Source: Promethearchaeota archaeon (GTDB lineage: Archaea; Asgardarchaeota; Lokiarchaeia; Sigyniarchaeales; SOKP01). From it: DNA of 64,000 nt. Below the pieces are notes generated by a model. That model searched no databases. It was not told where the DNA came from and saw only the letters and a list, made by a program, of their open reading frames with translations. The stretch's first letter is position 1. Every line of letters begins with the position of its first letter. The DNA lies in the NCBI GenBank assembly GCA_019057795.1, contig JAHLWS010000070.1:1-64000 (forward strand), read 5' to 3'. Position numbers and translations under genes: made by a program. This document shows, one piece after another, positions 27,422 through 61,169 of this stretch.

Positions 27422-28631
27422 ATGGTAATTAAAAAAGTTGGAATTTTAACGGGCGGCGGAGCCATGTTCAAGACTTTTCTTGACTGCCGTACACTGCCCC
27501 GGGTTAAATAGTGTAATTTATGGGATAATGTTAAAAGCCTACGATGCCGGTATAGAATGTGTTGGGATTCTTAAAGGTTGGAAAGGATTTGTGGAGAACT
27601 TAACTATCCCTCTAAATATCGCCGAACATGATGATTTACACACAGTTGGAGGTACAATATTATATACCAGTAGAACCAATCCTTTTAAAGGAGTTGATTC
27701 GAAAGAAGAAAAAGCAAAAGAATTAGCAAAGAAATTTGATGAATTAGGTATTGATGCACTTATCGCTATCGGTGGAGATTTAAAACGGTTTACATTTTAA
27801 ACCTAAAACGATACTTTAAGTGTTGCGGATGCTATGTGCAAATACTCAAAAGCGAATGTAATTGGCTGTCCAAAAACGATAGACAATGACTTGTTTGGGA
27901 CCCATTACACGTTCGGATTTTGGAGTTCGACGCAATTAGCTTCTAATGCAATGGACAATCTCACCACAACAGCTCGTTCGCATCAGCGGGTTTTTATAGT
28001 TGAAATAATGGGGAGAGATGCAGGATTTCTTACAATGTATAGTGGAATTTCTGCTGGTGCCGATATAATATTAATTCCTGAAACACCGTTTAGTTTAGAA
28101 AAGGATGTTATTGACGTGCTTAAAAAAAGAGTCAATGCAGGGTACAAATATCACATAATTGCCACCTCAGAAGGAGCTTATCCAAATTCAGAGTCGTTGA
28201 ACAAGGATTTTAAAACGATATCAAAAGAAACGATAGATAAATTACCTAAGGATACATACGGAAACCCGTTGCTTGTAAAATTGAATATATCCAAAATAAT
28301 TGTTGAAGAACTCAACTTAAGAGAAGATTTGAAAAAGGAATTTCAGAATAATGGTGTGGATTTTGAGTGTAGAAGCGTAGTCCTGGGCCACACAATGCGA
28401 GCAGGAACTCCTAATTGTTTTGATCGTATATTAGGATTAAGGTTTGGTTTAGCTGCAATGAAATTGGTTTTAAACAAAGACTTTGGTTATATGGTTTCGC
28501 TCCAAGGAACTAAAATAGAGAAGGTTCCCTTAGCTGAAGGTGTTAAAAAGAAGTATATAACATTTGATAATGATAAAATGGAATTACGAGACCTATTAGT
28601 GAAAATTAGATATTTATCGAAACAAAATTAA
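27422..28631 (+). CDS. pfkA: PfkA-family 6-phosphofructokinase (PPi-type signature), spliced: join(27422..27461,27493..27777,27808..28631), 382 aa
   Basis: Spliced product reads MVIKKVGILTGGG-D-CPGLN ... GGTILYTSR ... IGG-D-DTL ... PKTIDND ... EIMGRDAG ... LGHTMRAG. The two inserts fold as BHB or relaxed BHB. Confidence 0.88.
27462..27492 (+). other. BHB pre-mRNA intron 1 in pfk (31 nt)
   Basis: Central helix GCGG/CCGT, bulges AG|C and AC|A, inner stem CA/TG plus TCAAGA/TCTTGA. Removal restores GGA GAC TGC CCC GGG. Confidence 0.85.
27778..27807 (+). other. Relaxed BHB pre-mRNA intron 2 in pfk (30 nt, contains in-frame stops)
   Basis: Outer stem ATCG/CGAT, inner stem TTTAAAA/TTTTAAA, central GTGG/CCTA (2 of 4 paired), bulges AG|A and AA|A. 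Removal restores GGA GAC GAT ACT. Confidence 0.75.
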
Positions 28632-28678
28632 TTTCAGTGTTTTTTTTTATTTGTTGTATTTAAAAAAAGAAATTTAAA

Positions 28679-29917
28679 TTAACCGTAGTGTTTTTCTTCC
28701 TCGTGTTCAGCGTCAATTGCGTCTTGCTCTACATCGCGACCAAGCCATTTTTCGCTTAAAATTTCCTTGTAATACTCGTGTTGGATAATTAAATTCATTA
28801 TTTCTGTTGTGCCGGTCCAAATCTCTCCTAAACGGGCGTCCCTCATTAATCTTTCTATAGGATAGACGGTTGTGTATCCAATTCCACCCATGATTTGCAT
28901 CGATTTATTGATTACTTTCCAACACATTTTTGTTGAAAACTTTTTGGATTCAGAAACTAATCTTCTTTGGAGAGCGGGTGGCGCACCTGCATCTATTGTT
29001 TTCGCAGTGTTAAAGACAATTGCTCTTACTGCGTCTAAATATGTAATACAATCAGCGATCATGAAGTTAACAGCTTGAAAATTCTTAATTACTTGTCCAA
29101 ACGCTTTTCGTTTAGTGCTATATTTGGTAGCAATGTGTAGACAAGCACGTGCTAATCCAATAAAGCCAGAAGCTGTAGACAACCTCTCTGGAACCATCAT
29201 TTGATAGAATATTTTACCTCCCTTTCCCTCTCCCAGAATTAAATTTTCTTTTGGGATTTCTGCATCTTTAAAAATTATTCTACCCGCTCCGCCGCCTCTA
29301 GTACCTAACAAACCATATATATATGCTGCCTCTACTGCATCACTTTTATCAACAATAAATAAGCTTAAAGAATCACGAGGGGGGGCTTTAGGATTCGTTT
29401 TAGCGTAAACCAAAAAGAAATCAGCACCTTCAGCGCCAACAACGAATCGTTTTTCTCCATTTAATATATAGTAATCTCCTTCTTTTACAGCAGTAGATGT
29501 GGCTCCAAAAAAATCCGAACCTCCTCTTGGTTCAGTTAACGCTTCAGCAGTGAATTTCTTACCCTCACACATAGGCTTTAAATAATTTAACTTTTGGTCT
29601 TCTGTGCCAAATTTATTAAGCGCTTCCCCACATATACTCGGTAATGAAAATAAACAAGCTAGAGAACTTCCTAGTACGCCAACTTCTTCTTGGGCAATAA
29701 TTTCGCTTTCCCAATTTAATCCACGACCCCCATATTTCTTTGGAAACCTTATTCCAATCAAATTTTGTTTAGCTAATGCCTCCATCCACTCACTTGGATA
29801 TTGAATCTCGTCTTTATCCATTTGTTTTAATAATGAAGGTGGTACAGCATTTTTAACGAACTCTCGAACTTCTTCTCTAAATTTTTTATTTTCTTCGTTT
29901 AATAAATAATCATACAT
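28679..29917 (-). CDS. Acyl-CoA dehydrogenase
   Basis: [45 protein letters not shown]. Confidence 0.95.
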
Positions 29918-30069
29918 TTTCGATTCTCCTTAGATGATTTATACTACAATTAAGTAATGATGGGTCTAATAAAAATAATAGATAAATTTAGCTTTATTAG
30001 TTTAGAATTATTTAAATTGATCATTAGATATTGGATATATTTTTGAATTCATAAATTAGTGATCTAATT

Positions 30070-31307
30070 ATGCTTACAAAAATTAAAAATGGTTATAAAG
30101 AATATCCTAATGCGTTTAAAGTGTTGGTCCTCTCCACTTTCATTGACAGATTGGGATTTTTTTTATTATTTCCTTTTTTTGCATTGTATATAACCGCACA
30201 TTTTAATGTAGGAATGACCCAGGTAGGATTTCTATTTGCGATATTTTCGGCAGGAAATATAATCGGTGGTATAATCGGAGGTGCGTTAGCCGATAAATAT
30301 GGGCGTCGTGCTATGCTACTTGTTGGCTTGATTTCTAGCGGTGTAAACAGCATCTTCATGGGATTAGTTGATGATTTGAATATTTTTTACATCCTCGCTG
30401 CGTTTATGTGTTTAATGGGAAATTTTGGAGGTCCTGCGAGACAAGCAATGGTAGCAGATTTGCTTCCAAAAGAGAAATAAGCAGAGGGATTTGGGATTCT
30501 ACGGGTGGCTGTTAATCTTTCAGCAGCGATCGGTCCTATCTTTGGTGGAATTATAGCGACTCAATCTTATCTGCTTTTATTTATTGCAGATGCTGTAAGT
30601 AGTTTAATTACAGGTATTATTGTATTTTTGTCATTCCAGAAACGAAACCTGAAAAAAAAGAAGGCGAAGCAGAAGAAACAGTTGTGAAAACCGTGATAGG
30701 ATACAAAGAAGTTTTAAAAGATTGGAGATATATGTTGTTTCTCTCTGTATCTGCTATAACAGTGATTGTATACATGCAAATGAATGCCACCTTGTCGGTA
30801 TTTTTGCGTGATGTCCATGGATTTCCTACATTGTATTTTGGTTTTTTGTTAAGTATGAACGCGGTGATGGTGATATTTCAATTATGGATAACCAGGAAGA
30901 TGTCAAAATATTCTCCTATGAAAGTGATGGCTATAGGAACGCTGTTTTATATGGTTGGATTTGGTATGTACGGTTTTGTTTCAGAGTCATACCTATTTTT
31001 TATCGCTATGATAATTATTACTATAGGGGAGATGATTGAGATGCCTATTGGGCAAACTGCGGCAGCATCTTTTGCTCCTGAAGATAAACGAGGACGGTAT
31101 ATGGCAGTATTTGGCTTCCATTGGGCGATCCCTAATTTATTCGCTATTTTACTCGCGGGATTAGTAATGGAACATATTGGACCAAACTGGGTTTGGTATT
31201 TCGCATGTATTCTATCACTCTTTGCGGCGATAGGATTCTGGCTACTTCATGGAATTACAAAAGCTCGATTTTCTATAGAGAAGGAGTTACTCATTGAAGA
31301 AGTGTAA
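30070..31307 (+). pseudogene. MFS transporter pseudogene (MdtH-like)
   Basis: Motif A (GALADKYGRR). In-frame TAA at 30478-30480 followed by AEGFG; a 1-nt loss in the T run at 30625-30629 breaks ...VIPETKPE... No inserted hairpin at either lesion. Confidence 0.8.
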
Positions 31308-31442
31308 GAAATATGATTTTTAAAAAAATATTTATCTCTCACCGTTCTGGTTAAAATTGAATAATCAATTTTTTTTTAAACGTAAAAATAGGGCAAAACA
31401 AAAAGATTGGATATAAATTTTATACTTAATTAGTTTAATGAA

Positions 31443-32975
31443 ATGCAGTGGAAAAGAATTTTATTACTAGTCGCAAATTTTAAAACGACTGGTTATGATT
31501 TTTACGATTCGGCTTTTCCTCCCTTGGCACTTGAATATATAGCTGCGTATGTAGAGGATTTGGTTAAAGTAAAAATATTAGATTCTAAAGCAGCTAATTT
31601 AAATTTTTTTCAAGTAAAAAAAAAAATTGAAAAATTTAAGCCTGATTTAGTTGGTCTATCAGTTCCAGTCACAAGCTCTATAGATATTGTTTTAGAATAC
31701 GCAAAAATTGCTAAATTATATGGTGCAACAACAGTTATAGGCGGGTGGCATCCAACTTTAGCAGTTGAACAAACCTTATCTTCTCCATGGGTAGATATTT
31801 TAGTTAGAGGAGAGGGTGAATTTACTTTTCGTGAATTAATCAAAAAGGGTTCCCCAAAGTCTGTTAATGGTTTGTCATATAAAATAAATGGAAAAATGAT
31901 ACATAATCCAGATAGACAATTTTTAAAAAACTTGAATGAGTTAAAGCTTCCCTCTCGCCATCTTGTAGAAAAATATAAGTATAAAATATTTAATATGAAT
32001 TGCGACGCGATAGAAACATCTCGCGGATGCCCACAAGCATGTAAATTCTGTAGTACTAATGTGGTTTATAAGCAAACTTGGAGAGCTAGATCGGTAGAAA
32101 ATATAATAAAAGAATTGGAAATAGTATCAAAAAATAAAAGAGTCAAAGATGTTTTTTTTGTAGATGATAATATTCTTGTTAATATGAAACGGGTTGGGAG
32201 ATTATGTATTGAAATTATAAAAGGTAAAAGAGAAGGAAGAATTAAAAAAAAAATGTATTTTTTCTTTCAAGGACGCTTAGATTCCATGGCAAAACGACCA
32301 GGAGTTGTTAAATTAATGGCTGAAGCGGGCTTTTGGCTTGTTTTAGTAGGTGTTGAAGCAACCGATAATAGCCGATTAAAGAGTATTAAAAAAGGATGTA
32401 ATATAGAGCAAATTAAGAGAGGTATAGAGGTTTTACATCAAAACGGAATAGTAGTTATGGGAAATGTCATTCTTGGAATAAATCTAGATGATACATTGGA
32501 TGATGTTCTAATTACAATTAATAGAACTAGAGATTTAACTTTAGATTTACCTAGTTTTACATTGTTAACACCATTTCCAGCTACTGGTTTTTATGAAGAA
32601 ATGAAAGAGAAAGGTTTACTACTCACAGAAGATTATAGTAAATTCAATTGGTTAAATCCTGTAATAAAAACTCCAAATTTCAATTCGGAAGTTCTAAAAA
32701 AGTTATTATTTCTTGGATTTTATGCTAATGGTTTTTACGCTGGAAATTTAAGGAATAAAATTACTTTACTTCGTAGAACTATTAAATTAAGAGGATATTT
32801 TTATATTCTCCTTCCTACGAGAATATATCTAACAATTATTGCATATTTTAAATGGAAAAAAATTGTCCTCAATAACTTAAAAGGAATTAAAAAAAAAGAA
32901 ATAAAACAGATAAAATTAGGAAACCTGAATCAAATGAAGAATTTAAAAAATGAAATTTTAAAGCTAATGGATTAA
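31443..32975 (+). CDS. B12-binding domain radical SAM protein, paralog 1
   Basis: PPLALEYIA, GGWHPT, RGEGE, TSRGCPQACKFC, VDDN. Confidence 0.92.
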   Translation: MQWKRILLLVANFKTTGYDFYDSAFPPLALEYIAAYVEDLVKVKILDSKAANLNFFQVKKKIEKFKPDLVGLSVPVTSSIDIVLEYAKIAKLYGATTVIGGWHPTLAVEQTLSSPWVDILVRGEGEFTFRELIKKGSPKSVNGLSYKINGKMIHNPDRQFLKNLNELKLPSRHLVEKYKYKIFNMNCDAIETSRGCPQACKFCSTNVVYKQTWRARSVENIIKELEIVSKNKRVKDVFFVDDNILVNMKRVGRLCIEIIKGKREGRIKKKMYFFFQGRLDSMAKRPGVVKLMAEAGFWLVLVGVEATDNSRLKSIKKGCNIEQIKRGIEVLHQNGIVVMGNVILGINLDDTLDDVLITINRTRDLTLDLPSFTLLTPFPATGFYEEMKEKGLLLTEDYSKFNWLNPVIKTPNFNSEVLKKLLFLGFYANGFYAGNLRNKITLLRRTIKLRGYFYILLPTRIYLTIIAYFKWKKIVLNNLKGIKKKEIKQIKLGNLNQMKNLKNEILKLMD

Positions 32976-32979
32976 ATAA

Positions 32980-34449
32980 ATGGACGATGAAAAATTAAAA
33001 AATCAGAATTTTAATTGGGAGAAAATTCTATTAATTAAACCTAATTATAGAGCGACTGGTTGGGACTACTACAATATGGATTTTCCTCCAATCAATTTAA
33101 CATATATAGCTAGTTATTTAACTGACTTAGATGTTGAAATTGAAATTCTTGATGCAAAAGTAAAGAATTTAAATTATAACCAAATAAAGAAAAGGATTAA
33201 AAAATATAATCCAGATTTAGTAGGAATTTCCGTTTTTGTTTCTGCTGCGTTAGAAGTCTCAAATTCTATAGCGAAAATTGTAAAAGAAGTCAATTCAAAA
33301 TGCACTGTGGTATATGGGGGACGACACCCTACCTTTGAGCCCGATTCAACAATTAAATCTAATGAAGTCGATATTATAGTTAGAGGAGAAGGAGAGTTAA
33401 CATTTCGAGAATTAATTATTAAAGGTACTCCTAAAGACATAAAAGGTATTTCGTATAAATCTAATGGAAAAATAATTCATAATCCAGATAGGCCATTAAT
33501 TAAAAATTTTAAAGATATTAGATTTCCCGTAAGAAAATTTACAAAGAATAATAAATATAAGATGTTTACGGTGAGATTAGAAACAGTAGAAACTTCAAGA
33601 GGATGCCCATATACTTGTAAATTTTGTACAACACATATTTTCAATAATAATTTATGGAGACCACGACCAGTTGAAAAAATAATAGCAGAATTAAAAATCA
33701 TTTCTCAGAACAAGAAAATCACAGATATTTTTTTTGTAGACGATAATTTAACTGCTAATACTAAAAGAATTGAAAATTTATGCGAAAGAATAATTGAATG
33801 CAAAAAAAAGAAAGAAATTAATGATTTTAAATTTTTTGCGCAGATTAGAGTAGATTCTCTAGTTAAAGCGCCACAAATGGTAAATAAAATGTCCAAAGCA
33901 GGGTTTTGGGCTATTTTTATAGGAATTGAGAGCGTTAACGAGGACACTCTTAAAGAAATGAGAAAAGGATTCCAATTTAATAAGGTAATTGAAGCGTTAA
34001 GAATTTTGCATGATAATAATATAATAGCTATTGGAAATTTGATAATAGGGGTTGATTTAAATGAAACAGAAGAAGAAGTTATTAAAGAAATTAAATTTAT
34101 GAAAACTATTGATGTAGATATAGTTAGTTTTGTATTGTTAACTCCGTTTCCCGGAAGTGATACTATGAAAGAATTAGATGAGCAAGGTCTTGTTGTCTCT
34201 AAAGATTGGTCTAAATATACTGTCTTTGAACCTGTTATAAAAACTCATCAATTAAGCCCAAAGCAATTATATGATCTTTTATACTTTTCTTTCAGAGAGC
34301 TTAAGTATATTAATGATTGGAAAGGTTTAAGTTATCGCGTTCTTAAAACTCGAGGATTACTATTTTTACTTAACCCAAGACGTTTATTATCCTTAATAAA
34401 TTCCTTTTTAAAAGTGAGAACTTTATTCAAAGATTTTAAAAAAAGTTAG
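32980..34449 (+). CDS. B12-binding domain radical SAM protein, paralog 2
   Basis: GGRHPT, RGEGE, TSRGCPYTCKFC, VDDN, GIES, TPFPG. Confidence 0.92.
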   Translation: MDDEKLKNQNFNWEKILLIKPNYRATGWDYYNMDFPPINLTYIASYLTDLDVEIEILDAKVKNLNYNQIKKRIKKYNPDLVGISVFVSAALEVSNSIAKIVKEVNSKCTVVYGGRHPTFEPDSTIKSNEVDIIVRGEGELTFRELIIKGTPKDIKGISYKSNGKIIHNPDRPLIKNFKDIRFPVRKFTKNNKYKMFTVRLETVETSRGCPYTCKFCTTHIFNNNLWRPRPVEKIIAELKIISQNKKITDIFFVDDNLTANTKRIENLCERIIECKKKKEINDFKFFAQIRVDSLVKAPQMVNKMSKAGFWAIFIGIESVNEDTLKEMRKGFQFNKVIEALRILHDNNIIAIGNLIIGVDLNETEEEVIKEIKFMKTIDVDIVSFVLLTPFPGSDTMKELDEQGLVVSKDWSKYTVFEPVIKTHQLSPKQLYDLLYFSFRELKYINDWKGLSYRVLKTRGLLFLLNPRRLLSLINSFLKVRTLFKDFKKS

Positions 34450-34536
34450 GAAATTTATTTTACCATATCTTATAAATACATTATAATTCTTTTAATCGAC
34501 CATGCCCATTCAAATAATAAAAGGGAGTATAGAAAG

Positions 34537-34980
34537 ATGGAAGACGTAGAAAAAGAGGATAAGAAAGAAATTCCAAAATTTACTTGGGTTGTCCTAATTA
34601 TTCTGGGATGCATTGACCTATTTTGGGGTATAATGCACACCATATTTATTGATGAAGCTATTGCTCTTTTTGCCCACTTTGATTTAAGCGGTCCAATGGC
34701 AGGAGACCTAATGTTACAAATGACTGCGTTTGGAATTTCTAATTTAATCACCGGTGCAATGTTTATAATGATTGCATTAAAAGCAAGACAACTGGCAGAA
34801 ATAGTGTTAATATGCATTCCTGTTGCATATTTAATCGGAATAATTGCAATTAAGATAAAAAATATTGTTCCGCAGTCCGATCTTCTTGGGCAATATGGAA
34901 TGATGGTCTATCTTGTTGTCTGTATTATTACATTTATCGCAACGAGAGTGAAAATATGGCATGAAAATAAAAAGAAATGA
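34537..34980 (+). CDS. Hypothetical membrane protein (about 4 TM)
   Basis: Four hydrophobic segments; purine-rich sequence upstream of the ATG. Confidence 0.7.
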   Translation: MEDVEKEDKKEIPKFTWVVLIILGCIDLFWGIMHTIFIDEAIALFAHFDLSGPMAGDLMLQMTAFGISNLITGAMFIMIALKARQLAEIVLICIPVAYLIGIIAIKIKNIVPQSDLLGQYGMMVYLVVCIITFIATRVKIWHENKKK

Positions 34981-35002
34981 TATTTTTTTTTGAGTTTTTT
35001 AA

Positions 35003-36154
35003 TTATTGTTCAATTTCGAATATAACCTTAAGATATTCGTATTTAGAATTAAGTAATTTTAGTATATTTTTCGCAATTTTTCTTAGGTTTTGTGCGTGCA
35101 ATGGTTTCTCTTCTGCTTGTTCATCGTAGAAATCATGAATCATCCTTCTTGTTTTATCTACTCCGTTAGCATCCCAAAATTTTTCCCAATGAGTTGAGAT
35201 TCTACAGAGTGATTTTATCTTCTCGTCGGGATATTTAGGTTTATCTAAAATAATATCTTTGTATTTTTTAATAGCTTCGCCAACTTTTTCAAGGTGGTCC
35301 GCAATAGCAAAAGAATAACGATAAATGCTTATTAGATTTGATGTAGTTCTAGTATTTCGTGTATTGGCTGCCTGTTCAAAAGAATTCCATGCATCTAACC
35401 ATTCATTTTTGTGAATACCATCAATGTCATTGTTCACCATTGCTACATTTATAATATCGCTCAAATCTACATCATGACCTCTTTTAATTTTTTTATCAAA
35501 TATTTCCTTAAGACTTGACCCTTCAAGATAGCTCCCCGCCCCAAAATCAAGTAATTGATTAAGATTGTTTGCAGCAAATAATGTTTCGCGTCTAAATTCT
35601 TTAGTGTTAGGATTATTCCATTCAATTGTTTTTTCCCATTCTCCTGTATTTTTATTTTTTATGAAGCTACAATCTCTCAATGTTGAATCCAACAAATTTA
35701 TCTGAAACATCCAAAAATCAATGTCGTCTGTGAATCTTTTCCTTCTCCAATCTCTCGTAGTATACTTACCTAAATAGAGTTTCAATGTACCCCTAACTAA
35801 AGAAAATTTACCATGTTTTAACGCGTCGCGGGCTAATTCACAATAATGGTGATTAGGATCATTTGAACATTCTTCTAGTTTCTTAAGAATTTTACGAGCT
35901 TCTTCAGCTATAATATCACATGGGATACTTCCATCGGAAGGATAAGCTCTTGACCCTCCTTCAATAAAATTTTCAAAAAGTTCAAAATTGTTTTCTGGAA
36001 TCGAATACCAAGGATTATTAAAAGCAGCTTTACTAAAAATGTAATGAGTAAAACCGCTATCGTCTTTCCATGTTTTATCTAGTAGGGGTGAAACATCTCT
36101 GAGGTTATCTCCTTTTTTTACTGCGTCGGCTTTTATATCCCAAATTCCGTTCAT
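35003..36154 (-). CDS. Hypothetical protein with nucleotidyltransferase-like (AbiEii/pol-beta-like) motifs
   Basis: LVRGT.....R.RFTDDIDF and KK..RGHDVDLSDI. Confidence 0.45.
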   Translation of the reverse strand: MNGIWDIKADAVKKGDNLRDVSPLLDKTWKDDSGFTHYIFSKAAFNNPWYSIPENNFELFENFIEGGSRAYPSDGSIPCDIIAEEARKILKKLEECSNDPNHHYCELARDALKHGKFSLVRGTLKLYLGKYTTRDWRRKRFTDDIDFWMFQINLLDSTLRDCSFIKNKNTGEWEKTIEWNNPNTKEFRRETLFAANNLNQLLDFGAGSYLEGSSLKEIFDKKIKRGHDVDLSDIINVAMVNNDIDGIHKNEWLDAWNSFEQAANTRNTRTTSNLISIYRYSFAIADHLEKVGEAIKKYKDIILDKPKYPDEKIKSLCRISTHWEKFWDANGVDKTRRMIHDFYDEQAEEKPLHAQNLRKIAKNILKLLNSKYEYLKVIFEIEQ

Positions 36155-36301
36155 TGAAGAATCCTGCTTAATATTTAATAAAAATAAGAAATTTTTGAAA
36201 TTATTATTAAATTAAACTTTGCTATTATTAAAAAGGTAAAAATTATTTTTAAAAATTCTTTTATAATATAATATAAATAATATAACCATTTTTGCAAGAA
36301 T

Positions 36302-51307: not shown

Positions 51308-53389
51308 ATGACTAAAATCCGTGGTGTTATTGTTCCATCACTCACATTTTTTAATAAAGATTTAGAGGTTAATACTGAGCTTCATTCTTTACTAACTCGT
51401 CATCTACTCGTAAACGGAGCGGATTCAATTTATTTATTTGGGACTAAAGGTGCTGGGTTTTATTTTTCAGATAAACTAAAAGAAAAAATTAAATTGATAA
51501 ATTTAACATTAGAAGTCACTGGTAAAAAAACTCCGCTAATTGTAGGAATATTTGGAAATAACAAGGATCGAATAATCGACCAATTAGAGGAGTTAGGAAA
51601 AAAATTTGGTACCATTAATTTTATAATAGCCCCACCTTATTTAGAAAAAATTAAAGATGTAAATTCGTATTTAGATTACATTTTAGGAACTGTTAACATC
51701 GATAACCATATTTATATCCATAACAATCGTGAGAAATTTGCCGGAAATGAAATTAACCCTTCTATAGTTAAGGAATTGATTGGTTATGAAAATCTTTCTG
51801 GATTTATTGACTCTTGTGATAACATAAATTATTGTAAATCATATATAAAACTAATAAATGAAAATTTTTCTTTATTGTGTGAGAACGAGGAGACTTTTCA
51901 GAAATTCCTTCAACTAGTTCCTTTAAACCTAAGAAAATATGTTGGAATTGTTCCCTGTGTTAGCAACTTAGTTAATTTAAGTTCAAAGTTATATTTTTGT
52001 GCAATTGAGGAAAAGATTTTAGAGTTACACCAACTTCAAGAACAAATAAATGATATTAGAAATAAATTATATGATAATAAAGCTCAAGATGGAATAGAAC
52101 AACGAGGCTTGAAGTATGCGTTTTTATATTTATACAAAAGTTTTTCACCAAATTTAATAGAAGATTTAAATATTTTAAGTCCAAATTTAAAAGGGACCCT
52201 CGATGAAATCACAAAAGAAAGAATAGAAGCATATGTGAACTATTTAAAAAACCAAAAGCATATTTATCAATTATTTTCCTTAGGGAAAGATAATATATAT
52301 CAATTAGATGATATGATAAACATATTTTCTAATGTAGAAGTCCTCCTTTCTCAAGGCAACATAAAGAAGGTTATTGGTCCCTTCGATGCTGATATAAACA
52401 CAATATACAGAGTAAATTTTGAAAAGAGTCAGTTAATCTTCAAATTCCGGACTTTAAAATCTTTTCAATATGAAGATATTGTAAAAGAAAAACTTCTATT
52501 TCCTTTCCTAGACGGGTCGCTAAATTCCAATTCCTTTGATCTTAGAGAAAAAATAAAAAAAATCGTTTCGATCAAGAAAGGAGACTACCAATTTAGTAAC
52601 GATAAACCCCCTATTATACCAGTAGCAAATTTAGTTTATTTTGATGAAACTAAAGAAGTTATTCCATATATTTTTACTATCCAAGAATATGTCCACGGCA
52701 AGTCTTTAAAAGATTTGTTTAATCAATATAGTAAAGAGGATTTAAGCTTTTCTAAGTCCAAATTCTTAACTTTGTTTAATGATTTAGGAGAACTTTTAGG
52801 GAAATTACATACAATATCTTTTGATTCGTTTCAAGAGCACATTTATAATATAGGTAAAATATCAAAAATTAATTGGTTAGAACTTATTAATTCAGAATTT
52901 AAAATAGAGAGCCAAGAAGCAAGAAGAAAAAAACTTGGTTATGATAATGAAATAAAAACATTTTTAAAGGATAATATTTCTTTATTAGAAGAAGAAAACG
53001 AACCAGTTGTACTTCATAATGATTTTCAATGGACAAATCTAATAGTCAAAGATTCCCCTAACAAAATCCAGATAAATGGGATTATAGATTTTGATGATTG
53101 GCGAGTTGGTGCTAGGGCACAAGATTTTGTAAAAATGGAATTTTATACCTTAAAACCTATAAATAACATTGATATTAGAGAATCTTTTTATAATGGGTAT
53201 AAGAAATATTGTAATGTTGGGCAAGATTTTTTCAAAAAACTTGATATTTATTCATTATTATGGTTTTTAAAGTTTTATAATTCATTATATGGTAATTTAG
53301 CCAATCTAAAAGGTTCTAATTCAATTAATGAAAGAGATAAATTATGGAATTCATATATTAAAGAAATAGAAAGAATTATTAATTCCTAA
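51308..53389 (+). CDS. DHDPS/NAL-like TIM barrel fused to an APH/choline-kinase-like phosphotransferase
   Basis: N-terminus GVIVP.LTFF, NGAD...GTKG, PLIVG, PPY; C-terminus LGKLH, LHNDFQWTN, GIIDFDD. Confidence 0.75.
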   Translation: MTKIRGVIVPSLTFFNKDLEVNTELHSLLTRHLLVNGADSIYLFGTKGAGFYFSDKLKEKIKLINLTLEVTGKKTPLIVGIFGNNKDRIIDQLEELGKKFGTINFIIAPPYLEKIKDVNSYLDYILGTVNIDNHIYIHNNREKFAGNEINPSIVKELIGYENLSGFIDSCDNINYCKSYIKLINENFSLLCENEETFQKFLQLVPLNLRKYVGIVPCVSNLVNLSSKLYFCAIEEKILELHQLQEQINDIRNKLYDNKAQDGIEQRGLKYAFLYLYKSFSPNLIEDLNILSPNLKGTLDEITKERIEAYVNYLKNQKHIYQLFSLGKDNIYQLDDMINIFSNVEVLLSQGNIKKVIGPFDADINTIYRVNFEKSQLIFKFRTLKSFQYEDIVKEKLLFPFLDGSLNSNSFDLREKIKKIVSIKKGDYQFSNDKPPIIPVANLVYFDETKEVIPYIFTIQEYVHGKSLKDLFNQYSKEDLSFSKSKFLTLFNDLGELLGKLHTISFDSFQEHIYNIGKISKINWLELINSEFKIESQEARRKKLGYDNEIKTFLKDNISLLEEENEPVVLHNDFQWTNLIVKDSPNKIQINGIIDFDDWRVGARAQDFVKMEFYTLKPINNIDIRESFYNGYKKYCNVGQDFFKKLDIYSLLWFLKFYNSLYGNLANLKGSNSINERDKLWNSYIKEIERIINS

Positions 53390-53745
53390 ACTTGTTCATA
53401 GAGAACACATGCCATTAAAGTAAATTTCCAAGGTGCTTTATCACTACTGTAAACTAGTGATTTAACTTCCTCAGAAGATTCGATTCCTGAATAATCACTA
53501 AATACTTTCCAAGCAATTTTACCAATAGCGTCATGATCTTCTAGAATTGTTTTAAAATTTTGTTTAATTCCCGCCCAATATATTTTTCTTGAATCCATAA
53601 TTTCCTTCAGTTTTGGCAACTCAACTAAACCTTCTAGTACGAGGTTTTCAGAAACAAATGAGAAAAATTCACTAAATTTTTTTGAGACGTCATCTGGAGC
53701 TCCTAAATTTCTATCGTATAAAAACACAAGACCAATTGATTTCAT
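53386..53745 (-). CDS. Hypothetical protein
   Basis: 119-aa ORF with an upstream GGTGA motif. Confidence 0.65.
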   Translation of the reverse strand: MKSIGLVFLYDRNLGAPDDVSKKFSEFFSFVSENLVLEGLVELPKLKEIMDSRKIYWAGIKQNFKTILEDHDAIGKIAWKVFSDYSGIESSEEVKSLVYSSDKAPWKFTLMACVLYEQV

Positions 53746-53907
53746 TTTTTTAAATTCACCAATTCATCGAGTTAATTATCTTTATTATAAGTTTAGATTA
53801 TATTCCATAAAAGATTAAACATATTCGCATTATAATTATAAATTATGGAAGAATTAATAAATAGATATAATTAAAGTTATTCGAAAGAGAAGCTATTATA
53901 AAATTGC

Positions 53908-54321
53908 TCACCAAAAAGCATCTTGGAATTTTTTAATCGTTTCTTCTAAGCTATCTTCAATTTCTTTTTCAAAATTCATAAAAACGCTTACATCATTATC
54001 CCAGTTAAGCAAAATGTCCTCTGAGTATAGGTCGAAAAATTTGTTAGCAATAAATAACATTTCTTGCATAACTTTTTTTTCTTTTACTTTTTTCGCTGAA
54101 TTTGCTATAAATAGTATACTATTTTTTTTTAACAGAGTATAACGTTTATCTTGTAATTCAAAATTAGATAACCCTTTATGAACAAGTTCTTCAGCAAATG
54201 AATTTAACGCGGCCATTAACCCACCAAAAAGTTGATCATCCATATTTTCGTCAAATCTACGATGATAAAGAACGATTCCCGATTCTATGAGAATCCAAAT
54301 ATCTTGTAGTACTTTAGACAT
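53908..54321 (-). CDS. Longin-like domain protein (Asgard type)
   Basis: IWILIESGIVLY...QLFGGLMAALNSFAEE...F...Y pattern. Confidence 0.65.
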   Translation of the reverse strand: MSKVLQDIWILIESGIVLYHRRFDENMDDQLFGGLMAALNSFAEELVHKGLSNFELQDKRYTLLKKNSILFIANSAKKVKEKKVMQEMLFIANKFFDLYSEDILLNWDNDVSVFMNFEKEIEDSLEETIKKFQDAFW

Positions 54322-54407
54322 TTTTTTTACTGCTCCAAAAAAGACTCTAACTTCTTTTTAATTAGTCTTTATACTATATTATAAGAAAAAAAAGGTTTAA
54401 ATTTAAT

Positions 54408-55151
54408 CTATTTTTCACTTTTTGGTCTAATGTATCCAAAGTAAGCACCTAAAATGGCAAAAATAACAAAAATCCAGGCTAAAAAGTAGAACAACGAAAA
54501 TCCCGGTCCTCCTGCTAAAATAAGTACTCGATCAATTAAAAAACTTAATGGTACAAGGATAAAGAATATAGCCATTATTGCTAATGATAAAAAGGCTGTT
54601 TTAAAAACCTTATTATCTGTATCTTTATACGATTGAAAGGATTCAATGAAAAAGGGTATGTAAATTAATGCCATAAATACGAAAATAAATAGAAAAGCAA
54701 AAACATCGTATAGCGTATTTCCTCTCTGATATACAAATAAAGCAAATCCTGCGGTAAAAATCGCATAAAGTGTTACGATAATTCTCAAAACCTTATTGAA
54801 TCCTTTTCCGAAAACTTTTACTTTGAAAACGTATGAGAGATAGATACCAATAGATAAGAAGACAAAACTTATTCTAAAATCAGTTATTCTAAGTATAATC
54901 CAGGACAATAACGTACCAGGATCTGGAAGGATGGCGTTATACACATAATCGATTCCAGAATATAGCACAAAAATCTTCGATAACCAAGAAAATATAATTG
55001 CAATTACGTAACTTAGGAAAATTAAGAAGAGATACAAAGTTAACTGGTGTTTCTTTTCGTAATATTTCATTAGGATTAAGACTAGAAAAATCATTGCTAC
55101 TAAGATAATAAAAGTTTCAAAGACCATCCCAACGAATTGTAAGTCAGCCAT
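54408..55151 (-). CDS. Hypothetical 7-TM membrane protein
   Basis: About seven hydrophobic helices ending YFGYIRP. Confidence 0.7.
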   Translation of the reverse strand: MADLQFVGMVFETFIILVAMIFLVLILMKYYEKKHQLTLYLFLIFLSYVIAIIFSWLSKIFVLYSGIDYVYNAILPDPGTLLSWIILRITDFRISFVFLSIGIYLSYVFKVKVFGKGFNKVLRIIVTLYAIFTAGFALFVYQRGNTLYDVFAFLFIFVFMALIYIPFFIESFQSYKDTDNKVFKTAFLSLAIMAIFFILVPLSFLIDRVLILAGGPGFSLFYFLAWIFVIFAILGAYFGYIRPKSEK

Positions 55152-55370
55152 ATAAATTATTAAAAAGTAGAAGTATTTATATTTTAAGTTTCTAAGAAAT
55201 AAATCTGATTGATGAAAATGATAATTTTATTCTCAGGGAACTGCCAAATCTTTGAATATATTTAACTAAAATTTAATTTCTTAATAACATATAATAATTT
55301 AACTTTCTGTTTTTAATGTTTTCTAATAAAAGAGAGAGAGAATACAATTTGCACAGATGGTTTAATTTTT

Positions 55371-56303
55371 ATGTCGAACTTTAATAAAGAATTATCCTTA
55401 GCAATTAAATTGGTTAAAGAAGCTTCAGAAATTACAGAATGGTTTAGAAAAAAAAAAGTTTTATCATTTAAGAAAGAAGATGAATCGCCTGTAACTTTAG
55501 CAGATTTTGCTTCCCAAATCTTTATTATATCTAAAATAAAGGAGCTTTTTCCCGAAGACCAAATTATTGCGGAAGAAGATAGTGGAGCTTTTCTAAATCT
55601 AAATGCTGAAGATATTATAAAAAAGTGTTACAATTCGTTGAATCTAGTGATTGAGGATGACTTTAAAGACACTTTAAATTACCGAGGTTCTAATTCTAAA
55701 CGCCAATGGACAATAGATCCCATCGATGGTACAAAAGGATTCCAAAAACATTTAGCATATGCTATTGGGATTGGATTTATGGTTCAATCCGAACCAACAG
55801 TTTGCGCAATATCTGTACCAAACTATAATGAACAGAATCTAACGATTTTTTCTGCGGAAAAAAACCACGGAGCCAAAGTTTCGTATGGAAACCAAAACTT
55901 TAATCTAATTAAGGTAAGTGAAAATAAAATAATTAAGAATTTTCGTATGTGTCATTCGTTGCATTACGATAAACCTTGGGTAATAAATTTCGCTCGTTCA
56001 CTTGGTATAACCTACTTTGTTCAAATGGACAGTATGGCGAAGTTTTGCATGGTTGCTGATAGTACAGCCGATCTTTACGTTAAACCTTTGAATATAAAAC
56101 GTTCATTTACATGGGATTTTTTACCGGGAGATTTACTGGTTAAAGAAGCGGGAGGGATCATTACAGATCTAAATGGGAATTTAATTAAATATTTAAACGA
56201 GAAATGTATAATTACCGCTCCGGGTCTTATTGCTTCCAATGGGGTTTTGCATAAGGATTTATTAAACGCATTAAAATCAAGCAAAATCATAAAAAGTAGT
56301 TAA
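55371..56303 (+). CDS. 3'(2'),5'-bisphosphate nucleotidase / inositol monophosphatase family (HAL2-like)
   Basis: K.DESPVTLADF, IAEE, DPIDGTKGF, DS.AK, WD...G..LVKEAGG. Confidence 0.88.
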   Translation: MSNFNKELSLAIKLVKEASEITEWFRKKKVLSFKKEDESPVTLADFASQIFIISKIKELFPEDQIIAEEDSGAFLNLNAEDIIKKCYNSLNLVIEDDFKDTLNYRGSNSKRQWTIDPIDGTKGFQKHLAYAIGIGFMVQSEPTVCAISVPNYNEQNLTIFSAEKNHGAKVSYGNQNFNLIKVSENKIIKNFRMCHSLHYDKPWVINFARSLGITYFVQMDSMAKFCMVADSTADLYVKPLNIKRSFTWDFLPGDLLVKEAGGIITDLNGNLIKYLNEKCIITAPGLIASNGVLHKDLLNALKSSKIIKSS

Positions 56304-56313
56304 AAAATCCGAA

Positions 56314-57402
56314 TTAAACTGCTAAATAATTTATTAATGTAGTTTGCATTGCACTTGGAGCTTTTTCTATATTTGACAATTTAATGCCAACGAGTCTAAC
56401 TTTCTTGTTCATTATAGAAAATTGATTTAATAAATCAACAATTACTCTCAATACTTTATTCTTATCTTGAATATGATGAGCAAAAGATTTTGAGCGAGTG
56501 TATGTTAAAAATCCTTCAAGTCTTATTTTTAAAGTTACCGTCCGATAAAATATTTTATTTTTAATTACTTTTTTATGAATTTTATTATTTAATTCTTCAA
56601 GTTTAGTTAAAATTACTTTGAAATCATCCGTATCCTCATAAAAGGTTCGTTCCTTGCTAATAGATTTTCTATCACCGTCAAATTCTTTCACTTCTCTATC
56701 ATCAAAACCCATAGCAATTTCCCAGGCCCATTTTCCATTTTTACCAAACAATTGAATCATTTTATGGAGCGGAGTATTAATAATGTCACCAATCGTATTA
56801 ATGCCTTTTTTGTTGTAATACAATTTAGATTTTTTTCCAATACCTGGAATAGTAGTTATATCTAAATCTTTTAAAAAAAATTTTATTTTTTCAGGTTCAA
56901 CTACGGTAATTCCATTAGGTTTATTACAATCAGAAGCGATTTTTGCTATAGATTTAGTCGATGCACATCCAATCGAGATTGTAATACCTATTTTTTTTTG
57001 GACTTCGTCTTTTAATTTTTCAGCTAAATCTCTAACTTCTTTATAATTTATACACTTATCTGATATGTCTAGATATGCCTCGTCAATACTTACCTGTTGA
57101 AACATATCTGAATAGGAATTAACAATCTCCATTACTTCTTTTGAGGCTTTATGGTATTTCTCAAAATTGGGATGAAGATAGATACCATGAGGACATCTTT
57201 TATAAGCGCGGGATATAGGCATCGCAGAATGAAGTCCGAATTTTCGAGCCTCGTAGTTACAGGTACTGACTACACCTCTTCCTTTTCCCTCTTTTGGGTC
57301 TGCTCCTATTACTATAGGTTTTCCTATATATATTGGGTTATCTCGTTCCTCAACAGCAGCAAAAAAGCAATCTAAGTCGCAATGTAAGATAAAATGGCTC
57401 AT
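56314..57402 (-). CDS. dinB: DNA polymerase IV (Y family)
   Basis: HCDLDCFFAAVE, CNYEAR, SIDEAYLD, KPNG; PIP-like QTTLINYL. Confidence 0.95.
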   Translation of the reverse strand: MSHFILHCDLDCFFAAVEERDNPIYIGKPIVIGADPKEGKGRGVVSTCNYEARKFGLHSAMPISRAYKRCPHGIYLHPNFEKYHKASKEVMEIVNSYSDMFQQVSIDEAYLDISDKCINYKEVRDLAEKLKDEVQKKIGITISIGCASTKSIAKIASDCNKPNGITVVEPEKIKFFLKDLDITTIPGIGKKSKLYYNKKGINTIGDIINTPLHKMIQLFGKNGKWAWEIAMGFDDREVKEFDGDRKSISKERTFYEDTDDFKVILTKLEELNNKIHKKVIKNKIFYRTVTLKIRLEGFLTYTRSKSFAHHIQDKNKVLRVIVDLLNQFSIMNKKVRLVGIKLSNIEKAPSAMQTTLINYLAV

Positions 57403-57580
57403 TTTTAATCGTTTTTAATAAATTCCATTAATTTAGACATTGTTAGTATTTCCAAATAAATTAAAAAAAGTTAGACTATGTTGAATTATTAATTTAAAAT
57501 TACATAATCGCATAATTCATCTCTAATGGATGTCTAATTCTATGAAATACATTTTTAATCAATCTTTAATTTAAAATCAT

Positions 57581-58267
57581 ATGGAAACGGATAAGTTAGA
57601 ACAACTTCGAAAAACGGTTGTAAGAGGAGCTCAAGAGATATATAGTAAAGGGTTAGTTGAGGATGGAGAAGGTAATGTTAGTGTAAGAATCGATAAAAAT
57701 GAAATATTATGTACTCCCACTTCAACAAAATATAAATTATTAAGTCCTGAGCTAATTGTCCATATGGATTTAGATGGAAATGTATTAGGCTCGGGTAAAA
57801 TTCCTTCCACGGAAGTTAAAATGCATCTAGCCGTTTATAAAGATAGACCTAAAGTTAAATGTGTTATCCACAATCATTCATCCTATATTACTATGCTTTC
57901 AGTTCTAAGAAGAGGCATTCCAATTATAATGGAACAACAATTGATTTTCCTTGGTGGAGAAATTCGATGTACTGAAATTACTGAAGCCCACACAGAAGAA
58001 ATGGGATTAAATGCGTTGAAAGCGCTAGATAGAAATAACGCAGCGATACTCGCAAATCATGGGGCTATCATATGCGGAAAATCTGTTGATCACGCAGTTC
58101 GGTTTGCTGTAATATTAGAAAAATTGGCAAAAGTGTATTGGGGCGCACTGCAAATTGGAGTCCCATTAACGATCCCTGAGGAAAACCTTGAAGAACACGA
58201 GAAGATGTTTAACGGATTATTTGCTTGTTATCCACGAAGAATGAGGAGTAAAAAGTCAAATAGTTGA
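57581..58267 (+). CDS. Class II aldolase/adducin family (FucA-like)
   Basis: GNVSVR, PSTE..MH, IHNHS, LANHG. Confidence 0.9.
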   Translation: METDKLEQLRKTVVRGAQEIYSKGLVEDGEGNVSVRIDKNEILCTPTSTKYKLLSPELIVHMDLDGNVLGSGKIPSTEVKMHLAVYKDRPKVKCVIHNHSSYITMLSVLRRGIPIIMEQQLIFLGGEIRCTEITEAHTEEMGLNALKALDRNNAAILANHGAIICGKSVDHAVRFAVILEKLAKVYWGALQIGVPLTIPEENLEEHEKMFNGLFACYPRRMRSKKSNS

Positions 58268-58272
58268 TTTTT

Positions 58273-59103
58273 ATGGAATTAGGTATCAGTTCCTTAGGAG
58301 ATATTATCGATTTTGGACTTAGTAACAAGTGGAAGAATGTTAATGATTTGTTGTCTAAATCCACAGAAGCATGTCTTAATTTTGCCGAAAAACAAGACAT
58401 TGCTACAGTAGAAATAGTTATAGATCCACAAAATATATTTATAGACGCGATTAAACAAAAATTCGTTGACTTGATGAGTTCTTATTCTATGAAAAAGCAA
58501 GTTCATGGTCCTTTTATAGATGTAAATTTATGTTCCCACAATGATTTGATTTCTCAAGCTTCTGTAGAAGCCTATATTGAAACATCTAAACTTTGTGAAG
58601 AAGTAAATGTTGATATGATGACAATACATCCCGGTTTAGCGAACTTTATGATAGAATCAATTAGAGAATATAACAAAATTCAGTTAACCAAGGCGATTGA
58701 GACTTTATTAGATTTCACAAAAAACCTTAATTTAACGATTTGTTTAGAAAATATGCCCAAAAATACTAATATCATGTTAGATGAAAATAATATTTCCGAA
58801 ATATTAAGGAAAATTAATAGAACTGATCTTTTTCTTACCTACGATACGAGTCATTTTTATACTAACAACGGAAATGTAGAGGATTTATGGGAAACATCTC
58901 ATAACATTATCAAGAACATACATCTAGTTGATAATTTCACTAAAGAAACCGATACACACCCTCCTCTAGGCAGTGGAAAAGTCAAATTTAAAGAAATCTT
59001 AGAGATTATCAACAGTTACAACTATAAAGGAGCTCTAATTATAGAACTATCCTCTAATAAGAAATTACAAGAGAGCATCGATTATATTAACCGGTTTTTA
59101 TAA
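58273..59103 (+). CDS. Sugar phosphate isomerase/epimerase TIM barrel
   Basis: HGPF, TIHPG, LENM, DTSH, IHLVDN, DTH.P.G.G, IIE. Confidence 0.85.
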   Translation: MELGISSLGDIIDFGLSNKWKNVNDLLSKSTEACLNFAEKQDIATVEIVIDPQNIFIDAIKQKFVDLMSSYSMKKQVHGPFIDVNLCSHNDLISQASVEAYIETSKLCEEVNVDMMTIHPGLANFMIESIREYNKIQLTKAIETLLDFTKNLNLTICLENMPKNTNIMLDENNISEILRKINRTDLFLTYDTSHFYTNNGNVEDLWETSHNIIKNIHLVDNFTKETDTHPPLGSGKVKFKEILEIINSYNYKGALIIELSSNKKLQESIDYINRFL

Positions 59104-59179
59104 ACAAATTTCTCTGAAATTATTTTGTTTAATAGAAATTTTATACACTTATTTATGAAATAGTCTTATAAAATATATA

Positions 59180-59572
59180 ATGAAAATCATATCTCTTCAA
59201 ATTAGCGATGACTTGTTAGATAGGTTTGAAAAAGTTCGAAATCAGAGCGGATTTAATTCAAAAAGCGAAGCATTAAGAGATTCAATAATAAAATTCATTG
59301 AAAACTATGAAAAATTTGAAAATTTAGAAGGATATCGAATTATGAATATAAATCTTGTCTATCCATTTAAAGAACCTATTGCGGATGAAATTTCTGAACT
59401 TTATCACCAATTCCACGCCATAATCAAGGCCGTTACTGATTGGAGAATTGCAGAAAAAAAAATTGAAATTGTTTTAGTAGTAGGAGAATTCGGAATTATT
59501 AAGGATCTTTACAAAGCGATTGTTAAGATTAAAGACATAATAAGCTCAATCCACGAAGTTATAATCGATTAA
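59180..59572 (+). CDS. CopG/NikR-like RHH transcription regulator
   Basis: IISLQISDDLL...SKSEALRDSI plus an ACT-like C-terminal domain. Confidence 0.8.
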   Translation: MKIISLQISDDLLDRFEKVRNQSGFNSKSEALRDSIIKFIENYEKFENLEGYRIMNINLVYPFKEPIADEISELYHQFHAIIKAVTDWRIAEKKIEIVLVVGEFGIIKDLYKAIVKIKDIISSIHEVIID

Positions 59573-59583
59573 TTAATTCACAT

Positions 59584-60438
59584 TTAATCAAATCGAAGTG
59601 AAAAATCTACAAATTCAGTAGGTTTTTGCGTAAGCACGCTTGTACTTATTATATCGGGCTCGGAAATTAAATAATCAACTATGTTATCTTGCGTAATATT
59701 TCCCGAAACTTCAATAGTGACATTTTCGCGTAAATCATGTTTTTTTAGTAAGTTAATCGCATCTTGTACGCTATCAGGATTCATATTATCTAACATTATT
59801 ATATCTGCTCCGTTTTGTACAGCAATTAAAACATCCTCAACTTTTTCCACTTCAACTTCTATCTTTTTTGTAAAACTAACGTTGTTTTTCACATTTTTGA
59901 GAAGTTCTGCGACATTTCCGTTATAAAATTTTAAGTGTGTTGACTTTAAAAGCACCATATCATCTAAGTTAAAACGATGCGTATCTCCTTTTCCAAAATC
60001 TACAGCTTTTTTTTCAAATAATCGTAAACCGGGAAGGGTCTTTCTAGTACATGCTATTTTAACTATTTTTCCGGATTTTTCAATTATCTTAACAAATTTA
60101 CGCGTTGTTGAGGTAATTGCGCTCATATGGCTCATAAGATTTAAACCCACTCTTTCGCCTAACAAGATATCTTTAGTTTTTCCACGTAATTCTACTATTA
60201 CATCTCCATTTTGGATTTGATCGCCATCTTCTTTCTTGAGAGTAACGGCAATACCTAAAACATGAAATAATATCTCGATTTCTTCGATACCCGATAAATA
60301 CCCGTCACTTTTAGCAATAATCTTGGCGGACGAAATCGAATCCTTAGGGATTGATTTTGAGCTAATATCAATAAACATACAATCTTCGTGCAAAAACTCC
60401 CTTATTTTTTTTTCAATTAAAATGCGATTAAAACTCAT
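59584..60438 (-). CDS. nadC: Nicotinate-nucleotide pyrophosphorylase (QPRTase)
   Basis: ER..LN, TRKTLPGLR..EK.AV, HR, EVEV, IMLDNM, E.SG. Confidence 0.95.
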   Translation of the reverse strand: MSFNRILIEKKIREFLHEDCMFIDISSKSIPKDSISSAKIIAKSDGYLSGIEEIEILFHVLGIAVTLKKEDGDQIQNGDVIVELRGKTKDILLGERVGLNLMSHMSAITSTTRKFVKIIEKSGKIVKIACTRKTLPGLRLFEKKAVDFGKGDTHRFNLDDMVLLKSTHLKFYNGNVAELLKNVKNNVSFTKKIEVEVEKVEDVLIAVQNGADIIMLDNMNPDSVQDAINLLKKHDLRENVTIEVSGNITQDNIVDYLISEPDIISTSVLTQKPTEFVDFSLRFD

Positions 60439-60494
60439 TTTTACCAGATTCTTTAAGCAGTATTATTATTATAGATTAAACACTAATTAAAATT

Positions 60495-61169
60495 ATGCAT
60501 GGCATTGATAAAATAATTATTGAAACTAATGAAATTAGGCTTGAAGCCGAGTTTTTTCAGTTGAGTACAAATATTTCTCAGTCAGTTGTTTTAATTTGTC
60601 ACCCACATCCTCAATTTTTCTGGGTTTAAAGCCCTAAAAAGGGAAAATATGGGGGCAATCTGTATAACAATGTCGTATCTGGCGTTTTTAATATGTGCGT
60701 TCAAAATAAGATTTCATGTTTGCGGTTTAATTTCAGGGGAGTAGGAAGTTCGACTGGAAGTCATACTAGTGGAAATGGCGAGTTAAGCGATGTGAAAGCT
60801 TGTATTGATTTTTTAATAAACGAGAAAAACATTGAAAAAATAATAATCTGTGGTTATTCCTACGGCGCCGCTATCGGGTGTTCTGTTGTAAATTTTTCTG
60901 AGAAAATAATTGGCTATTGTGCGATTTCTTTTCCTTGGGATTTCATGGGCTCAAAATATAAGAAACTTTCTCAAACTAAAAAACCAAAATTGTTTATTCA
61001 AGGGAATCGAGATACTATTGCGCTCTATGAAAATTTTGAAAACCATTATAATTTCTATTTCGAACCAAAAAAATATAAGATTATTAATGGAGCTGACCAC
61101 TTTTACTCGGGATTTGAAGAAAATATCGCACAAGAAGTAAGCGAATTCTACAATTCGATTACAAAATAA
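60495..61169 (+). CDS. Alpha/beta hydrolase, spliced: join(60495..60613,60647..61169), 213 aa
   Basis: Spliced product reads VLICHPHPQ-YGGNLYNNVV, RFNFRGVG.S, GYSYG, QG.RD, GADHF. Confidence 0.88.
60614..60646 (+). other. BHB pre-mRNA intron (33 nt, contains in-frame TAA)
   Basis: Central helix TCCT/GGGA, bulges CA|A and AA|A, inner stem TTTTT/AAAAA plus GGGT/GCCC, outer stem CCCACA/TATGGG. Confidence 0.87.

Follow-up and report, generated by a model that had tools for sequence, protein, structure and literature searches.

Candidate tRNA-type introns interrupt protein-coding genes of a Loki-type Asgard archaeon

The window analyzed here, a stretch of 64,000 nucleotides (nt) spanning positions 1 to 64,000 of contig JAHLWS010000070.1 (GenBank assembly GCA_019057795.1), contains a phosphofructokinase (PFK) gene, pfk, and an alpha/beta-hydrolase gene that are interrupted by three inserts of 30-33 nt. 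We consider it highly likely that these inserts represent archaeal bulge-helix-bulge (BHB, tRNA-type) introns in pre-mRNAs, which would be removed by the tRNA-splicing endonuclease EndA before the exons are joined by the RtcB ligase. We infer the actual cleavage and ligation, along with EndA and RtcB as the responsible enzymes, from sequence. The original prediction of BHB introns in ordinary mRNAs is supported by the exact presence or absence of the inserts among relatives, covariation within the predicted motifs, the position of the cut sites, purifying selection on the exons, and a genome that encodes both EndA and RtcB. Given that its nearest records are Promethearchaeota/Promethearchaeia metagenome-assembled genomes (MAGs; e.g., ABR02, ABR04, Loki_b31, and Loki_b32), the host is an uncultured Loki-type Asgard archaeon, and its genome is itself a MAG of 87 contigs and 4.95 Mb with an estimated contamination of 7.5%. 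The two genes are laid out as follows.

27422..27461, plus strand: pfk exon 1, encoding MVIKKVGILTGGG and the first base of an Asp codon; alignable to the N-terminal ends of orthologues without introns
27462..27492, plus strand: candidate pfk intron 1, 31 nt; exact indel relative to relatives, with covariation
27493..27777, plus strand: pfk exon 2; Pfam PF00365 profile positions 11-100, E 1.4e-21
27778..27807, plus strand: candidate pfk intron 2, 30 nt, relaxed BHB; exact indel relative to relatives
27808..28631, plus strand: pfk exon 3, up to the stop codon; Pfam PF00365 profile positions 103-276, E 2.9e-53
60495..60613, plus strand: alpha/beta-hydrolase exon 1, ending in ...CHPHP and the CA of a Gln codon
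60614..60646, plus strand: candidate hydrolase intron, 33 nt, near-canonical hBHBh'; present or absent among orthologues, with covariation
60647..61169, plus strand: hydrolase exon 2, up to the stop codon; matches Pfam alpha/beta-hydrolase families

The start of PFK is encoded from 27422 on the plus strand, and the first insert (27462-27492) shifts the frame, with exon 1 ending in GGC GGC GGA G and exon 2 starting with AC TGC CCC GGG. Beyond this insert the PFK frame picks up at (D)CPGLN and runs on to IAIGG(D), where the second insert (27778-27807) leaves the frame unchanged and contains an internal TAA. The exons here join as GGU GGA G↓AC GAU ACU (the arrow marks a predicted joint or cut throughout), after which the frame continues as DTLS... 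to 28631. Excision of both inserts restores the motifs GGGDCPG and IGGDDTL, and the resulting pieces fall on consecutive stretches of the PFK profile. In the hydrolase gene the insert is likewise in frame with a TAA inside and follows ...CHPHPQ; the exon join reads CCU CA↓A UAU GGG, the frame resumes at YGGN... and extends to 61169, and excision restores HPHPQYGG. The coordinates, lengths, and junction peptides that had been proposed for three inserts inside conserved motifs of two otherwise intact genes proved correct on each count. Both genes appear as fragments in open reading frame (ORF) listings, and the further suggestion that such genes are hidden as fragments holds in public protein sets, in which calls of this PFK truncated to 265-274 aa or 356-360 aa stand beside intron-less proteins of 381-386 aa.

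We searched for both genes in 40 relatives, and for pfk also in one genome per species of a public collection, which provided approximately 45 genus-level pfk orthologues (76-94% identity) and 22 same-genus hydrolase orthologues. When aligned with these relatives the inserts were seen as exact 31-, 30-, and 33-nt indels. Of the roughly 45 pfk orthologues, 11 carry intron 1 and 10 carry intron 2; among the 44 genes that could be scored at both sites, 28 carry neither, six carry intron 1 only, five carry intron 2 only, and five carry both. Intron-less pfk genes read GGxG↓AyTGyCC and GGxG↓AyGAyAC at the two sites, and the alignment gap coincides exactly with the predicted joints. Among the 22 hydrolase orthologues, 16 carry the intron and the remaining 6 lack it to the base. 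Judging from open-frame lengths, neither gene showed a frame break in the sampled members of the order's other families. Approximately 51 kb of the window aligns with five syntenic relatives, and the only indels of about 30 nt across this span are the three introns, two tRNA introns found in relatives and missing from this genome, and one 27-nt insert. The latter, an AT-rich insert relative to genome G016, lies at 13039-13065 at the end of a minus-strand ORF (14045-13059) and is probably an intergenic or C-terminal length difference, not an intron.

Intron presence is scattered over the pfk gene tree, a pattern that requires at least six changes, and sister pairs (L108/L109, L128/L144, and L112/L122) differ in pfk intron content. 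The simplest reading is repeated precise loss from an intron-bearing ancestor, because distant carriers have clearly homologous intron sequence in common; gain or transfer may be an alternative. The introns appear to be old within the genus, with many events of precise loss or gain. Two genes (L138:1159-1232 and L128:1158-1232) carry at the intron 1 site a hairpin of essentially unrelated stem sequence, one of them 32 nt long and one a perfect stem of 9 bp. Both hairpins retain the central helix and bulges of pfk intron 1 and could reflect either extreme divergence or independent insertion at the same site.

In the mechanism that we propose, the transcript would fold into an outer exon-exon helix (h), a central helix of approximately 4 bp set between two bulges of 3 nt, one on each strand, and a hairpin within the intron (h'). 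A two-subunit EndA would then cleave each bulge 3' of its second nucleotide and RtcB would join the exons, yielding an intact phosphofructokinase mRNA after two splices and an intact alpha/beta-hydrolase mRNA after one. The hydrolase intron comes closest to this arrangement, with a predicted outer helix of CACCCACA/UAUGGGGG, a central helix of UCCU/GGGA, bulges of CA↓A and AA↓A, and an inner stem of UUUUU..GGG/CCC..AAAAA. All four central pairs are formed and are invariant in 16 species, across which 91.4% of cells are paired, a share that drops to at most 70% once the 3' partners are slid. Seven pairs are compensatory, with changes in both partners, and 6 of 500 shuffles gave as many; two of these seven lie in the exon-exon helix (60600-60665; alignment columns 12/63 and 15/60). 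There, the third codon positions of His and Gly residues covary from CG to UA, one of the two pairs linking a His with a Gly codon, suggesting that synonymous sites are held to the motif and that codon choice in the flanking exons is constrained by the splicing motif.

For pfk intron 1 we predict a central helix of GCGG/CCGU, bulges of AG↓C and AC↓A, and an irregular inner hairpin. The central helix forms four of four pairs, including a G-U, and is fully (100%) paired across 11 species, one of which shows a compensatory change to GUGG/CCAC. Over the whole motif 92% of cells are paired in these 11 species versus at most 58% when slid, and none of 500 shuffles reached the observed six compensatory pairs. 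The predicted fold of pfk intron 2 comprises an outer helix of UAUCG/CGAUA, bulges of AG↓A and AA↓A, and an inner stem of UUUAAAA/UUUUAAA, with both helices well kept and 88% of cells paired versus at most 44% when slid. Across species, h is 89.6-100% paired and h' 84-91% paired, and h' accounts for five compensatory pairs in the hydrolase intron and five in pfk intron 1. The hydrolase intron and pfk intron 1 carry the central helix and bulges that define a BHB, which pfk intron 2 has only in relaxed form. Single-sequence energy minimization offered an alternative hairpin for the latter (GGUUUA/UAAACC) that would give a 24-nt intron and leave Leu-Lys inside the GGDD motif; we rejected it because the UUUAAAA/UUUUAAA stem is conserved in relatives and intron-less genes lack the extra residues.

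The original prediction also held that a cut after the second bulge nucleotide restores both frame and motif, and for all three introns this cut produces the junction found in intron-less orthologues. Upon sliding a fixed-length excision from -6 to +6 nt (13 shifts) and scoring summed BHB pairing at four loci, we observed that the homology-defined junction scored highest at each one (12 versus at most 9, 13 versus at most 8, 14 versus 12, and 13 versus at most 9).

After excision, each of the 16 intron-bearing pfk genes forms an intact 372-codon frame with no other lesion. Relaxed selection on the exons, which had been named beforehand as the mark of pseudogenes, was not observed: median pairwise dN/dS is 0.053 for intron-bearing and 0.053 for intron-less pfk, with dS of the orthologues relative to this genome ranging from 0.5 to 2.4. 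The exons are under the same strong purifying selection with or without introns.

The genome encodes two EndA paralogues (PF01974/PF02778), one with the catalytic Tyr/His/Lys and the other lacking the His; their genes lie in the regions of C69:74212 and C74:72339. For the catalytic paralogue the best solved match is the Aeropyrum pernix EndA chain 3P1Z_B, with an end-to-end alignment (E 4e-34) that takes in a stretch which we regard as the crenarchaeal specificity loop. The enzyme is predicted to be of the two-subunit, crenarchaeal type with broad specificity. RtcB is encoded on the same contig as the window, at 112485-113792 (561 bits). Asgard archaea have been described as possessing an (alpha-beta)2 EndA with an L1 loop, and only such enzymes cut relaxed motifs (PMC5829648); the EndA pair and the 3P1Z_B match seen here agree with that description.

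We considered whether an enzyme other than EndA and RtcB could remove the inserts at the RNA level, to which two of the three motifs being relaxed would lend some weight. This appears quite improbable, as the geometry and cut positions match EndA substrates, the genome has an EndA of the broad-specificity type, and inserts of 30-33 nt fall far below the size of self-splicing group I/II introns. The latter depend on a catalytic RNA core of hundreds of nucleotides, and an Rfam scan of the window at gathering thresholds returned tRNAs only, leading us to reject a self-splicing intron or known ribozyme. A repeat or mobile element resembling a miniature inverted-repeat transposable element was rejected as well, each intron matching only itself in the 4.95-Mb genome (blastn-short).

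Alternatively, the inserts could remain in the mRNA and be skipped by the ribosome, either through frameshifting or through translational bypass (hopping) of the kind known from phage T4 gene 60. Every insert holds a hairpin and two contain a stop codon soon after the would-be take-off point, as known bypass elements do. We nonetheless find this account very improbable: matching take-off and landing codons are absent, and the joint of pfk intron 1 falls inside an Asp codon (G↓AC), such that bypass of whole codons would yield His instead of the invariant Asp. Moreover, what is conserved is a set of helices, both exon-intron and exon-exon, together with bulges of 3 nt, as the endonuclease needs, and the tRNA introns of the same genome are built alike.

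That the genes are pseudogenes or decaying, with neutral inserts that are never removed, would fit the observation that all three inserts stop or shift the frame if left unspliced, and a second PFK-family gene in the genome could make loss of this pfk tolerable. This is highly improbable given that the inserts persist in 10-16 species over an exon dS of 0.5-2.4 at a dN/dS near 0.05, as in intron-less genes, that no intron-bearing pfk has any other lesion, and that insert structure is kept by compensatory changes. Assembly or sequencing artefacts, conceivable in a fragmented MAG with some estimated contamination, have a negligible probability, since homologous inserts occupy the same sites in independently assembled MAGs from many studies and their sequences have diverged in a structure-preserving way.

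Several observations weigh against BHB splicing as we have described it. The outer helix of pfk intron 1 (GGGCG/UGCCC) requires a 4-nt 3' bulge or a shared G, whereas in pfk intron 2 it is the central helix (GUGG/CCUA) that is deficient, forming two of four pairs here and at most three in relatives with 67.5% of cells paired. Intron 2 also has a single compensatory pair, and hence almost no covariation, making it the weakest of the three and a relaxed motif; neither pfk intron is a textbook substrate. At the gene for ribosomal protein uL11 (rpl11), discussed below, an alternative 26-nt BHB register of the 28-nt intron scores one point higher and would not restore the frame, and therefore BHB structure by itself does not always fix the cut site. 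Finally, public protein sets contain no full-length PFK at least 97% identical to the exons of this genome, a result that is uninformative rather than negative and is listed here because assembly of a spliced transcript would have yielded such a protein.

The second PFK-family gene, at C12:10637-11437 on the plus strand (161 bits), is an uninterrupted and divergent 400-aa open frame that the pfk protein search missed at E 1e-20, and it may represent either a paralogue or contaminating sequence. Because of this gene, PFK activity, and with it glycolysis, may not depend wholly on splicing.

The three tRNA introns of the window, which range from 23 to 31 nt, follow the same cut rule, and its application rebuilds correct tRNAs at all three loci, as had been proposed. 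The tRNA genes are listed below.

4423..4527, minus strand: tRNA-Ser(UGA), canonical 37/38 BHB intron at 4469-4491; helix CUUG/CAAG, bulges AG↓C and UA↓A
7176..7275, plus strand: tRNA-Val(UAC), D-loop BHB intron of 27 nt at 7199-7225; helix GUUA/UAAU, bulges UG↓A and AU↓A
5454..5568, plus strand (3' end approximate): tRNA-Ser(GCU), 31-nt intron at 5460-5490, separating positions 6 and 7 of the acceptor stem

For tRNA-Ser(GCU), excision rebuilds the 5' acceptor strand as GCUCAG↓G. We placed the tRNA introns by BHB register together with Rfam, as the intron search of ARAGORN misplaces them; its call of Thr(UGU) with an intron at 34/35 for 4423-4527 was rejected in favor of tRNA-Ser(UGA), this being a type-II tRNA with a perfect BHB (CUUG/CAAG) and a long variable arm. 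The tRNA introns are also polymorphic among relatives, with genomes G012 and G016 carrying a 30-nt insert at approximately 4337 in tRNA-Lys(CUU) (4324-4397), which has none in this genome, and G012 a further 30-nt insert in tRNA-Val at approximately 7235.

Turning to frequency, we scanned the genome intrinsically for a rigid or relaxed BHB pattern whose excision restores a frame, using excisions shifted by -5 to +5 nt as controls. Shift 0 gave no more hits than the other shifts. Neighboring genes on the same strand create a high background, and true motifs are too relaxed to fit a strict pattern; these scans were discarded as the basis for a census. A plain list of adjacent ORF fragments in the window was likewise too noisy. 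Comparison with other genomes was more productive. Over 556 kb of the congener G002 aligned to this genome, four mRNA introns are present here and missing there, including both pfk introns. As an outgroup sample, proteins from an evenly spread 1.2 Mb (27%) of the closed, intron-poor genome G032 were aligned to this genome with a 40% identity filter; they matched approximately 259 conserved loci, one of which, that of ribosomal protein uL11, is interrupted. Within the window, this method picks up pfk intron 2 as well as the intron of the hydrolase. The first exon of pfk, 13 residues long, escapes it, and the hydrolase would be lost to the identity filter. The additional candidate introns are given here.

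C43:23305-23333, minus strand: 29-nt intron in an Fe-S protein gene (CxxCxxC); BHB-like, frame-restoring, absent from G002
C75:67876-67905, minus strand: 30-nt intron in a gene of approximately 660 codons; BHB-like, frame-restoring, absent from G002
C73:108881-108910 and 108824-108851, minus strand: two introns of 30 nt and 28 nt in the ribosomal protein uL11 gene; from the outgroup protein alignment

With one interrupted locus among approximately 259 and four introns in 556 kb, these data suggest that interrupted genes number in the tens genome-wide, not the hundreds, and that the window is richer than average. The original prediction had extrapolated from three introns in about 55 genes to many more across the genome; further cases were indeed found (uL11, C43, and C75), but the density it implied was overstated. 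Separately, we noted a region (C22:30128-32529) in which in-frame stops align with conserved Cys residues of outgroup proteins, such as ICHCG versus ACQ(stop)G, and which looks like a cluster of candidate selenocysteine-containing proteins.

Whether EndA/RtcB-dependent mRNA splicing forms a regular and evolutionarily dynamic layer of expression in this lineage is, in our judgment, evenly balanced. Such a layer would involve tens of ordinary genes, among them those for glycolysis, ribosomal proteins, Fe-S proteins, and others, with introns gained or precisely lost between sister species and flanking codon choice shaped by the motif. If true, archaeal relatives of eukaryotes, to which group the host belongs as the archaeal group closest to eukaryotes, would already tolerate and maintain interrupted protein genes, splicing and translation would have to be uncoupled or ordered, and how active the tRNA-splicing machinery is could gate the expression of central enzymes. 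How splicing that must precede translation is ordered relative to coupled translation in a prokaryote would bear on scenarios for the origin of the nucleus. In practical terms, gene callers truncate or split such genes, with the consequence that metabolic reconstructions and completeness estimates of Asgard MAGs overlook proteins or assign them the wrong size. Sister species that differ in intron presence, in turn, offer a natural system for how introns arrive and are precisely lost.

Archaeal tRNA introns were reportedly surveyed by Marck and Grosjean in 2003, and the BHB intron in crenarchaeal cbf5 is said to have been described by Watanabe in 2002 and Yoshinari in 2006. Our full-text literature search returned no paper that describes BHB introns in protein-coding genes of Asgard archaea. 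In the papers searched, dating up to 2025, pre-mRNA splicing by the archaeal tRNA endonuclease is cited only for cbf5 (PMC5829648 refs 22-24; PMC12397907 refs 4-6), and a 2026 preprint on Asgard tRNA introns (bioRxiv 10.64898/2026.10.13.758758) reports heavily interrupted tRNA genes in some families and does not treat protein-coding genes.

The closest known parallel is the pre-mRNA intron of the crenarchaeal pseudouridine synthase gene cbf5 (Yokobori 2009, PMC2738675), likewise a short BHB-type intron within a gene that codes for a protein, with patchy presence and gain or loss among related species. The cbf5 intron is removed by an (alpha-beta)2 hetero-oligomeric tRNA-splicing endonuclease, the same type that is predicted here. 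It differs in its hosts, which are Desulfurococcales and Sulfolobales as opposed to an Asgard archaeon of the Promethearchaeota, and in residing in one RNA-modification gene, whereas several genes per genome appear to be affected here, including a glycolytic kinase, a hydrolase, and elsewhere uL11 and others, with up to two introns in one gene. Splicing of cbf5 has moreover been demonstrated experimentally, while that of the introns described here is predicted from sequence. They share with archaeal tRNA introns the motif, the cut rule, a similar size, non-canonical positions, repeated gain and loss, and residence in the same genome, but their host RNA is an mRNA in which the motif's exon half is made up of codons and synonymous sites would be recruited for pairing. 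In eukaryotes, HAC1/XBP1 mRNA is spliced by the endonuclease Ire1 together with a tRNA ligase, or with RtcB in metazoa (PMC5829648 ref 5). The proposed mechanism would work in a similar manner, with a protein endonuclease cutting two stem-loop sites in an mRNA, a tRNA-type ligase joining the exons, and the reading frame changing as a result; HAC1/XBP1 splicing is regulatory and stress-induced, in contrast to the system proposed here, which involves another endonuclease family and motif and has no known regulation. Lastly, the 50-nt bypass of phage T4 gene 60 resembles these introns as a short structured insert that interrupts a coding sequence and does not appear in the protein, yet it relies on matched take-off and landing codons and whole-codon joints, both of which are absent here.

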